From a plasmid: DNA of 57,443 bases. Shown in pieces: positions 27,936 through 28,525 of this stretch (positions are counted from its first letter, which is position 1; every line of letters begins with the position of its first letter). A program made the translations under genes and the position numbers. The stretch lies in sequence record NZ_CP149754.1; one strand, given 5' to 3'. The notes under the pieces are model-generated. The model searched no databases. It was not told the DNA's origin and saw nothing but the letters and a program-made list of their open reading frames with translations.

Positions 27936-28084
27936 AATTAGAACTTTTAAACAAGTGTTTTTAATTATATAATTTACCATAATATGTTATAATATTTTTA
28001 GCAAGAAGATTTAACTTACAATCTATAGAGTGGAGTTCATGTACAAAAGATTATCCTCCCAACGATTCGAAGGGAGGTGAGTTC

Positions 28085-28237
28085 ATGGATAACTTTTTGT
28101 TTAATGTTTTAGCTAGTTTAACAGCTAGTGTGGTAGTTTACTTAATCAGTAAACTATTCAAAAAAGCAAAAAGCCACTCTCGCACAAAGAGTGACTTACG
28201 AGTTGAATTTAAATTTATATTTAAATCCAAAAAATAA
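28085..28237 (+). CDS. type I toxin (50 aa: N-terminal TM helix, Lys-rich C-terminus)
   Basis: MDNFLFNVLASLTASVVVYLISKLFKKAKSHSRTKSDLRVEFKFIFKSKK. The RBS GGAGGTG is sequestered by the CCTCCC...GGGAGG hairpin in the 5' UTR. A paralog lies at 52284-52445. Resembles toxins of C. difficile type I TA modules found next to CRISPR arrays. Confidence 0.65.
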   Translation: MDNFLFNVLASLTASVVVYLISKLFKKAKSHSRTKSDLRVEFKFIFKSKK

Positions 28238-28290
28238 ACTCTGTTTATGATGAACTCCACTCTAACGCAAAATAGATTGTAGTTCTTCTT
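28130..28290 (-). ncRNA. putative antisense antitoxin RNA of the type I TA module (approximate extent)
   Basis: Minus-strand extended -10 TTTGTGGTATAAT (plus coordinates 28297-28309) directs transcription into the toxin 3' end. The promoter is conserved in the second copy. Confidence 0.3.
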
Positions 28291-28525
28291 GCTTTTATTA
28301 TACCACAAAATAGTACAGATATTCAAAAATAATATTTTTTTTGATATAATAAAAATGTAGAGGTTTTGCAGTGAGCGATATTTTTGATAAAATAGGGCTT
28401 AACAGTTGAAACATAAGGCATTGAGGGTATATGATAAATATTATCATTTGCACTACTCGTGGTTCACTGCAAATTTGAGAGAATTGTATAGATGTAAGTC
28501 TTGGAAATGCTCAATTTATTTTGGG

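Follow-up and report, generated by a model that had tools for sequence, protein, structure and literature searches.

The DNA analysed here, which we call the window, is a stretch of 57,443 nucleotides (nt) from a plasmid record, NZ_CP149754.1. It contains two related toxin-antitoxin (TA) modules, and the subject of this study is the first of them, copy 1. We conclude, with a probability of about 0.9, that this locus is a type I TA cassette of the Clostridioides difficile CD_typeI_toxin / RCd family, carried on a temperate phage of the phiC2/CDMH1 type and placed back-to-back with the leader of a phage-borne CRISPR array. Copy 1 is an ordinary member of an already described family of small membrane toxins with antisense RNAs that lie beside phage CRISPR arrays in C. 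difficile, and it confirms known biology. The same system was reported by Maikova et al. (2018, PMC5961336) and by Peltier et al. (2020, PMC7699646), and a curated NCBIfam model covers the toxin. The residual novelty lies in a conserved 5'-3' closure of the toxin mRNA and in the mimicry of its 5' end by the antitoxin, neither of which is described in the family literature covered here. An earlier note on this DNA had likened the locus to the type I pairs adjacent to CRISPR arrays in C. difficile prophages. The architecture matches, with a temperate C. difficile phage, an adjacent array and a toxin of family NF047374.1.

The toxin open reading frame (ORF) lies on the plus strand at 28085-28237 and encodes 50 amino acids (aa), MDNFLFNVLASLTASVVVYLISKLFKKAKSHSRTKSDLRVEFKFIFKSKK, with an N-terminal transmembrane helix and a Lys-rich tail, as the earlier note had read it. 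The best 19-residue Kyte-Doolittle window scores 1.99 (residues 4-22), ten Lys or Arg residues fall within residues 26-50, and the net charge is +8. Small size, a hydrophobic N-terminal segment and a charged tail are the features of toxins of the described family, and copy 1 has all of them. The protein scores 73.5 bits against the NCBIfam equivalog NF047374.1 "CD_typeI_toxin" (cut-off 60), with residues 1-50 aligned on model positions 1-51 of 51. Its closest database proteins, at 93-98% identity, are from C. difficile and are labelled type I toxin-antitoxin system toxin. There is also a match to PHROG 738 (E = 1.3e-25), which is annotated as 'unknown function', and a Pfam search with the toxin gave no match. 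The possibility that the toxin is a new allele was dropped when tblastn of IMG/VR returned identical ORFs in four contigs (L001-L004). In L001 and L003 the 301-nt module is the same base for base, and the toxin protein is identical also in L002 and L004.

From IMG/VR, from GTDB genomes and from assemblies at NCBI we gathered 55 homologous loci for comparison, and with the two copies in the window these make 57 modules. Removal of L023, which is disrupted, and of L047, for which extraction by end motifs failed, left 55 modules comprising 29 distinct toxin-mRNA sequences. These variants come from C. difficile prophages and genomes, and all the elements of the module recur in them. In their alignment the ORF is less conserved than the two untranslated ends that flank it and than both -10 boxes.

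A sigma-A-type promoter for the toxin is found on the plus strand at 27985-27993, with an extended -10 element TGTTATAAT and a weak -35, and transcription is predicted to start at 28000-28002. The motif ATATGnTATAAT of this promoter is kept in all classes of module, and the sequence farther upstream is class-specific. The predicted mRNA of ~290-298 nt (28001-28296, plus strand) would end in a U-rich run. The published description of this architecture (PMC5961336) has toxins 50-53 aa long, a toxin mRNA of 298 nt in which the untranslated region (UTR) takes up 83 nt, and an antisense RNA of 134 nt that stops at a terminator, with the size of RCd9 and RCd10 mapped by rapid amplification of cDNA ends. 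The predicted 5' UTR of copy 1, 83-85 nt, agrees with the published 83 nt for CD2907.1 and CD0956.2.

Within this UTR the sequence GGAGGTG (28073-28079) lies 5 nt ahead of the toxin ATG, and it is buried in a hairpin (28055-28077, plus strand) in which CCUCCC (28055-28060) pairs with GGGAGG (28072-28077). The earlier note had placed the ribosome binding site in exactly this hairpin, and it is paired in the fold of minimum free energy. The hairpin alone is worth -11.5 kcal/mol, the unpaired probability of GGAGG in the predicted fold of the toxin mRNA is 0.00, and the six core pairs are retained in 28-29 of the 29 variants. Sequestration of the site and the RNA structures of the C. difficile toxins are mentioned only as 'data not shown' in PMC5961336. 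A 13-codon upstream ORF (28039-28080, MYKRLSSQRFEGR) runs through the same hairpin and stops 4 nt before the toxin ATG. Because modules of the copy-2 class have no such ATG, this ORF was not accepted as a conserved element and probably has no function. A scan with Rfam 15 found no family over the UTR or the antitoxin, the only matches above threshold being to CRISPR-DR14, and the sole sub-threshold match, to Phe_leader (22.6 bits; gathering score 55), was rejected as noise.

The two ends of the toxin mRNA are complementary to each other. The 5' arm (28001-28040, plus strand) comprises the blocks GCAAGAAGA, ACAATCTAT and AGAGTGGAGTTCAT; the 3' arm (28250-28293, plus strand) is nearly invariant in the 29 variants and is followed by the U-rich run CUUUUAUUAU. 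In block 1, GCAAGAAGA (28001-28009) complements TCTTCTTGC (28284-28292). In block 2, ACAATCTAT (28019-28027) complements ATAGATTGT (28273-28281). In block 3, AGAGTGGAGTTCAT (28027-28040) finds its reverse complement at 28250-28263, and one further base extends this to a perfect inverted repeat of 15 nt (28026-28040 / 28250-28264). Only block 3 had been recognised in the earlier note; its complement past the stop codon is present, although it had been placed at 28248-28262 and so was wrong by 1-2 nt. The three blocks are collinear, and the pairing reaches the very 5' end of the predicted transcript.

The energetics of folding are in accord with this closing helix. The 298-nt transcript 28002-28299 folds at -91.8 kcal/mol, compared with -53.2 +/- 4.8 kcal/mol for dinucleotide shuffles (z = -8.0), and none of 200 shuffles folded as well. 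In the minimum-energy fold the 5'-3' helix closes the molecule and the Shine-Dalgarno hairpin is kept. Forcing nt 1-40 open changed the minimum free energy from -96.0 to -60.6 kcal/mol, so that the closing helix is worth ~35 kcal/mol. The arms are kept in all 29 distinct modules, with 89-94% of cells in the closing helices paired. The 15-mer repeat alone was not used as evidence, because AT-rich DNA gives such repeats by chance; a perfect inverted repeat of at least 15 nt arose in 203 of 5000 mononucleotide shuffles of 27900-28600 (~4%). As an alternative to the long-range pairing, the 3' arm can form a local hairpin (28252-28286, -10 kcal/mol) that is the mirror of the 5' stem-loop of the antitoxin.

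The antitoxin gene is read from the opposite strand. Its promoter (28297-28326, minus strand), found in a promoter scan, has a -35 TTGAAT at 28326-28321, an 18-nt spacer and an extended -10 TGTGGTATAAT at 28307-28297. This is the convergent minus-strand element that had been noticed from the letters, the reverse complement of 28297-28307, and the -10 together with its TG extension is conserved in all variants. A terminator scan identified an intrinsic terminator (28157-28197, minus strand) that was absent from the earlier note, consisting of a stem of 11 pairs at 28197-28171 followed by UUUUUGCUUUUUU, with the U-tract reaching ~28157. Together the promoter and terminator define a predicted antitoxin RNA of ~134 nt (28157-28290, minus strand), fully complementary to toxin codons 25-50 and the 3' UTR, with a fold of z = -3.55. 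The suggestion of an antisense antitoxin is therefore supported at the level of sequence, with an intrinsic terminator where one is expected and an RNA of the size of RCd9 and RCd10. Promoter and terminator are conserved in all 29 variants. Their antitoxin consensus contains two conserved elements, a 5' stem-loop in which the 8-nt loop varies, and a terminator with an invariant stem and a variable loop. The first ~45 nt of the antitoxin share three blocks (9 + 9 + 14 = 32 nt) with the first 40 nt of the toxin mRNA. The two 5' ends resemble each other because the 3' arm of the toxin mRNA complements both its own 5' arm and the antitoxin.

The arms of the terminator stem (28171-28197) are at the same time the toxin codons for K-S-H-S and K-S-D-L (codons 28-38), so that constraint on the RNA applies to this protein motif as well. 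In an alignment of eight toxin proteins, columns K29-S32 and S36-L38 do not vary. Nothing in the C-terminal half of the family's toxins is more invariant than these two tetrapeptides, and it may be the RNA hairpin, not the function of the protein, that has kept them.

Some observations weigh against the assignment of the locus as a type I TA cassette of this family. Copy 1 is known from sequence and homology. Its exact 50-aa allele is not among the characterised toxins, and no annotated protein in a collection of 15 billion proteins is identical to it, although three IMG/VR contigs contain the identical DNA. The antitoxin does not overlap the ribosome binding site, and sequence by itself does not account for a block of translation. 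The published lengths fit the locus only within about 6-9 nt, and a toxin mRNA of 298 nt would end within the -10 box of the antitoxin. Finally, neither the closing helices nor the ribosome-binding-site hairpin has any compensatory double substitution among the 29 variants, only changes of G-C to G-U; compensatory changes are confined to helices inside the ORF (helices 8, 10, 12 and 13). We therefore rejected covariation as proof of these two structures. Their sequences are too conserved to provide it, and the support for them comes from conservation and thermodynamics.

The cassette might also have decayed to a silent relic, with an ORF that looks intact, no functional toxin made and the antisense RNA alone expressed. 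Decay does occur in the family. Two of the three CRISPR-linked loci in strain R20291 are described as 'antitoxin and CRISPR only' with mutated toxin genes (PMC5961336), and among the relatives compared here all that lay beyond toxin codon 33 in L023 (IMGVR_UViG_2879510609_000012) has given way to foreign sequence, the Lys tail of L005 is frameshifted, and P0010, P0012 and P0018 are also disrupted or frameshifted. In copy 1, however, the toxin is encoded at full length and exceeds the equivalog cut-off; promoter, Shine-Dalgarno sequence, start, stop and both arms are intact; and the 301-nt region and the toxin protein recur unchanged in the contigs noted above (L001 and L003, with the protein also in L002 and L004). 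We regard decay as very improbable.

Another reading concerns the inverted repeat at the two borders of the cassette (27975-28041 and 28250-28316). This could be mainly a feature of the DNA, created by inverted duplication of a promoter and leader or marking the recombination boundary of a mobile cassette, with the pairing in the mRNA a by-product that has no regulatory role. The repeat does extend into the untranscribed -10 boxes (TGTTATAAT compared with TGTGGTATAAT), the cassette is found in differing genomic contexts with sequence breaks just beyond the two promoters, and the closing helices lack compensatory covariation, all of which speaks for this reading. Yet the 5' arm is nearly invariant in the 29 variants even though the antitoxin does not cover it, and the ORF between the arms varies. 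The few substitutions in the arms (columns 16, 24, 266 and 301) place C or U opposite G, so that pairing is kept, and the helix contributes ~35 kcal/mol. Closure of the 5' and 3' ends is a device that controls other type I toxin mRNAs, such as hok and aapA1. The folding of aapA1 mRNA is cited in PMC5961336. On balance we consider a repeat that is mainly a DNA-level feature to be unlikely.

A mechanism can be proposed for the type I cassette. The extended -10 promoter at 27985-27993 would produce a toxin mRNA of ~295 nt in which the Shine-Dalgarno sequence is held in its hairpin and the first 40 nt are paired with the 44 nt after the stop codon. The convergent promoter (28307-28297) and the terminator (28197-28157) would generate the ~134-nt antisense RNA. 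By homology with CD2907.1-RCd9, CD0956.2-RCd10 and CD2517.1-RCd8 (PMC5961336, PMC7699646), the 50-aa peptide is expected to insert in the membrane and arrest growth; membrane location, growth arrest and rescue by the cognate antitoxin only were reported in PMC5961336. The same work described a toxin-antitoxin duplex, loop-loop contacts and cleavage by RNase III in vitro, and half-lives of 35 min for CD2907.1 and 13 min for RCd9. By analogy with these homologues, an abundant but less stable antitoxin would form a full duplex with a more stable toxin mRNA by way of loop-loop contacts, and the duplex would block toxin synthesis and promote cleavage by RNases III, J and Y. On loss of the phage the short-lived antitoxin would disappear first and the cell would be inhibited, so that the prophage and its attached array would be stabilised.

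Two further steps are our own proposals. Because the first ~45 nt of the antitoxin share three blocks with the first 40 nt of the toxin mRNA, the antitoxin would be expected to compete with the toxin 5' arm for the 3' arm and to open the closing helix. As the mirror of the stem-loop at the antitoxin 5' end, the local hairpin of the 3' arm would make complementary loops available for the kissing contact described in PMC5961336. In addition, the variable loops of the two conserved antitoxin hairpins may decide which toxin each antitoxin recognises. The antitoxin regions of copies 1 and 2 are 73% identical and their hairpin loops differ, and by analogy with the lack of cross-reaction published for the homologues the two modules of the phage probably do not cross-react.

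These ideas can be taken further, tentatively, in a form that we consider possible but doubtful. The cassette may be a symmetric 'self-mimic' switch, built as an imperfect inverted repeat in which an extended -10 promoter and the opening ~40 nt of a transcript lie at either end, so that antitoxin and toxin mRNA begin with almost identical sequence. The toxin mRNA would be born closed by the helix of ~35 kcal/mol, and this helix with the U-run that follows it may double as a transcription terminator. Kissing contact would be made first at the variable loop 28265-28272, after which the antitoxin would replace the toxin 5' arm on the 3' arm by toehold strand displacement. The displaced toxin 5' end would be exposed to RNase J, and a substrate for RNase III would be created. 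Strand displacement of this kind is not described in the family literature covered here.

The module lies directly upstream of CRISPR array 2, and an association of TA modules with CRISPR arrays is found in most C. difficile genomes (PMC5961336). The leader of array 2 (28322-28525, plus strand) has its own promoter, TTCAAA-17-TGaTATAAT, at 28322-28350. The -35 TTCAAA of this promoter (28322-28327) overlaps the -35 of the antitoxin (28326-28321), and the two transcription units are therefore divergent, with predicted starts ~67 bp apart. Array 2 itself (28526-28884, plus strand; Rfam RF01327) has five full 29-nt repeats, a degenerate sixth and five spacers, and is followed at ~28878-28908 by a terminator-like hairpin. 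Its first repeat begins at 28526, 289 nt past the toxin stop. The earlier note had described the conserved leader as shared, and indeed 28344-28553 is 85% identical to 52545-52754, upstream of array 3.

The same note had spoken of a module fused to the CRISPR leader. This is an apt description here, where the divergent -35 boxes overlap at 28321-28327, but fusion is not obligatory in the family. In many homologous loci the first repeat occurs at a fixed +441 to +443 from the toxin ATG, and the leader motif too lies at a fixed distance from it. About half of the homologous loci have no downstream array, and in three (L002, L005 and L048) an insertion of ~450 nt separates the antitoxin promoter from the CRISPR leader. 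With arrays absent or displaced in these homologues, the TA cassette from promoter to promoter (~27975-28316) is a separable unit.

The proximity of the array raises the question of biological role. Rather than maintaining the prophage, the cassette could serve chiefly in abortive infection or in a dormancy that is linked with defence by CRISPR, or it could stabilise the array, with release of the toxin on stress or on attack by a rival phage buying time for interference. The coupling through overlapping divergent -35 boxes is consistent with this, as is the published co-regulation of TA pairs and CRISPR arrays by Sigma B and in biofilms, and the proposed coupling of immunity to dormancy (PMC5961336). 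So too is the oldest spacer of array 2 (spacer 5, 28819-28856), which matches the repR repressor gene of phages phiCD119 and phiCDHM19 at 36 of 38 positions; the phage-borne array is thus directed at rival temperate phages. In the phage collection no match was obtained for the remaining four spacers of array 2. Nevertheless the only direct functional evidence for the family is for prophage stabilisation, with modules of this kind stabilising phiCD630-1 and present in all C. difficile phages (PMC7699646), and the many homologous cassettes without an adjacent array indicate a TA function independent of CRISPR. We consider a main role in defence or in stabilising the array to be unlikely. This reading concerns biological role and not molecular identity, and it is compatible with the assignment of copy 1 as a type I TA cassette.

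A further feature of the leader is the sequence GTTGAA-N14-GGGTAT at 28405-28430, which resembles a Sigma B-type promoter and is partly kept in the array 3 leader (…GGGTGT). Such a motif would be in keeping with the dependence on Sigma B that has been published for CRISPR arrays of C. difficile.

Four CRISPR arrays are present in the window, at 993-1217, 28526-28884, 52727-53220 and 55797-56089. No cas genes were noticed in the window, the ORFs of which were only partly annotated. The repeats occur in two variants, …GTGGTATGTAAAT and …ATGGAATGTAAAT, and array 4 mixes both. The long leader and the TA module are found only at arrays 2 and 3. At arrays 1 and 4 the leader is short and different, with a TGGTATAAT promoter, and there is no TA module; each of these two arrays comes after a paralogous antirepressor-like gene (161-256 and 54974-55069, 81% identical).

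The paralogous module upstream of array 3, copy 2, occupies 52186-52504 on the plus strand, with the same architecture and a toxin ORF of 53 aa at 52284-52445. Its toxin is 62% identical to that of copy 1 and scores 65.9 bits against NF047374.1. The exact protein is a very common allele, found in 880 contig blocks and named 'type I toxin-antitoxin system toxin'. Copy 2 is placed between tail-tube and chaperone genes and the array, as in many C. difficile genomes. Searches of the window for further copies or short variants of the toxin by tblastn and motif scans revealed none beyond the two modules. One weak match to the toxin (22832-22891) was rejected, as it falls within a 169-aa membrane protein. 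Within the coding region of an antirepressor-like gene, window positions 87-124 hold a 12/14 match to the 5'-arm motif AGAGTGGAGTATAT together with a 7/9 peptide match to the toxin tail (YKLIFKSKK); these matches are probably coincidence.

The window as a whole is the circularly permuted genome of a temperate myophage of the phiC2/CDMH1 type, and its structural genes match phiC2, CDMH1, phiMMP01/03 and phiCDKH02 at 87-91% identity. Copy 1 lies in the lysogeny and accessory region, where the order is a serine recombinase (23854-25371, minus strand), a tetratricopeptide-repeat protein, a CWB2 cell-wall protein (26508-27935, plus strand), the module, array 2 and an XRE regulator (28927-29145, minus strand). 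Megablast of the locus against 50,697 phage records gave best matches of 73-79% identity over 59% of the query, all of which end at the antitoxin promoter, and the junction of TA module and leader seen in copy 1 is in no deposited phage of that set. Directly after the endolysin gene lies a gene for a 425-aa AAA_15/AAA_21 ATPase (15838-17115), with putative AbiEii-like and OLD-type domain matches. This may be a phage-carried defence gene in the accessory region.

These results indicate that a real, published regulatory module can be recovered from raw sequence by reading without tools. Toxin ORFs and antisense RNAs of this type are usually unannotated in phage records, and nothing is annotated in the homologous stretches of phiCDHM19, phiCD119 and CD1801; flagging such elements improves phage annotation. 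A single temperate phage bearing two diverged TA and CRISPR cassettes and two further arrays fits the view of these modules as stabilisers of prophages and of their anti-phage cargo. The point that possibly merits work at the bench is the mechanistic role of the conserved 5'-3' closure and of the mimicry by the antitoxin 5' end.

The closest known systems are CD2907.1-RCd9 and CD0956.2-RCd10, from prophages phiCD630-2 and phiCD630-1 and associated with CRISPR 16/15 and 3/4 respectively. Their toxins belong to the same family, NF047374.1, as that of copy 1. Like copy 1 they have a convergent arrangement with the antisense RNA over the 3' end of the toxin, a long 5' UTR with a sequestered ribosome binding site, a ~134-nt antitoxin with its intrinsic terminator inside the ORF, and a prophage site directly upstream of a CRISPR leader. 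Copy 1 differs in its place, which is not the tail module but the lysogeny and accessory region. Copy 2 probably falls in the same subgroup as these two pairs, judging by the common toxin family and the array-adjacent prophage setting. CD2517.1-RCd8, beside CRISPR 12, belongs to group A with the other characterised toxins, three in all, and the toxin of copy 1 would by inference be a member too. Its sizes are comparable, with a 306-nt mRNA, an 88-nt UTR and an antitoxin of ~130-140 nt, and CD2517.1 is toxic and rescued by its cognate antitoxin only. Unlike copy 1 it is chromosomal, and its antitoxin transcripts overlap the CRISPR array itself.

More distant parallels exist in other bacteria. 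The txpA/RatA and bsrG/SR4 pairs of Bacillus subtilis also encode small membrane toxins on prophage-like elements, with a convergent antisense RNA over the 3' end and a sequestered ribosome binding site, and RNases III, J1 and Y act in decay of the RNA; they differ from copy 1 in having no sequence homology (PMC5961336) and no association with CRISPR. In hok/sok of the Escherichia coli plasmid R1 and aapA1/IsoA1 of Helicobacter pylori, which act in post-segregational killing, the toxin mRNA is kept inert by long-range 5'-3' pairing and occlusion of the ribosome binding site. There the antisense RNA targets the 5' region and the mRNA is activated by processing at its 3' end; we know of no such processing step in the C. 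difficile family. In copy 1, unlike either of these systems, the predicted antitoxin is directed against the closing helix itself, pairing with its 3' arm.

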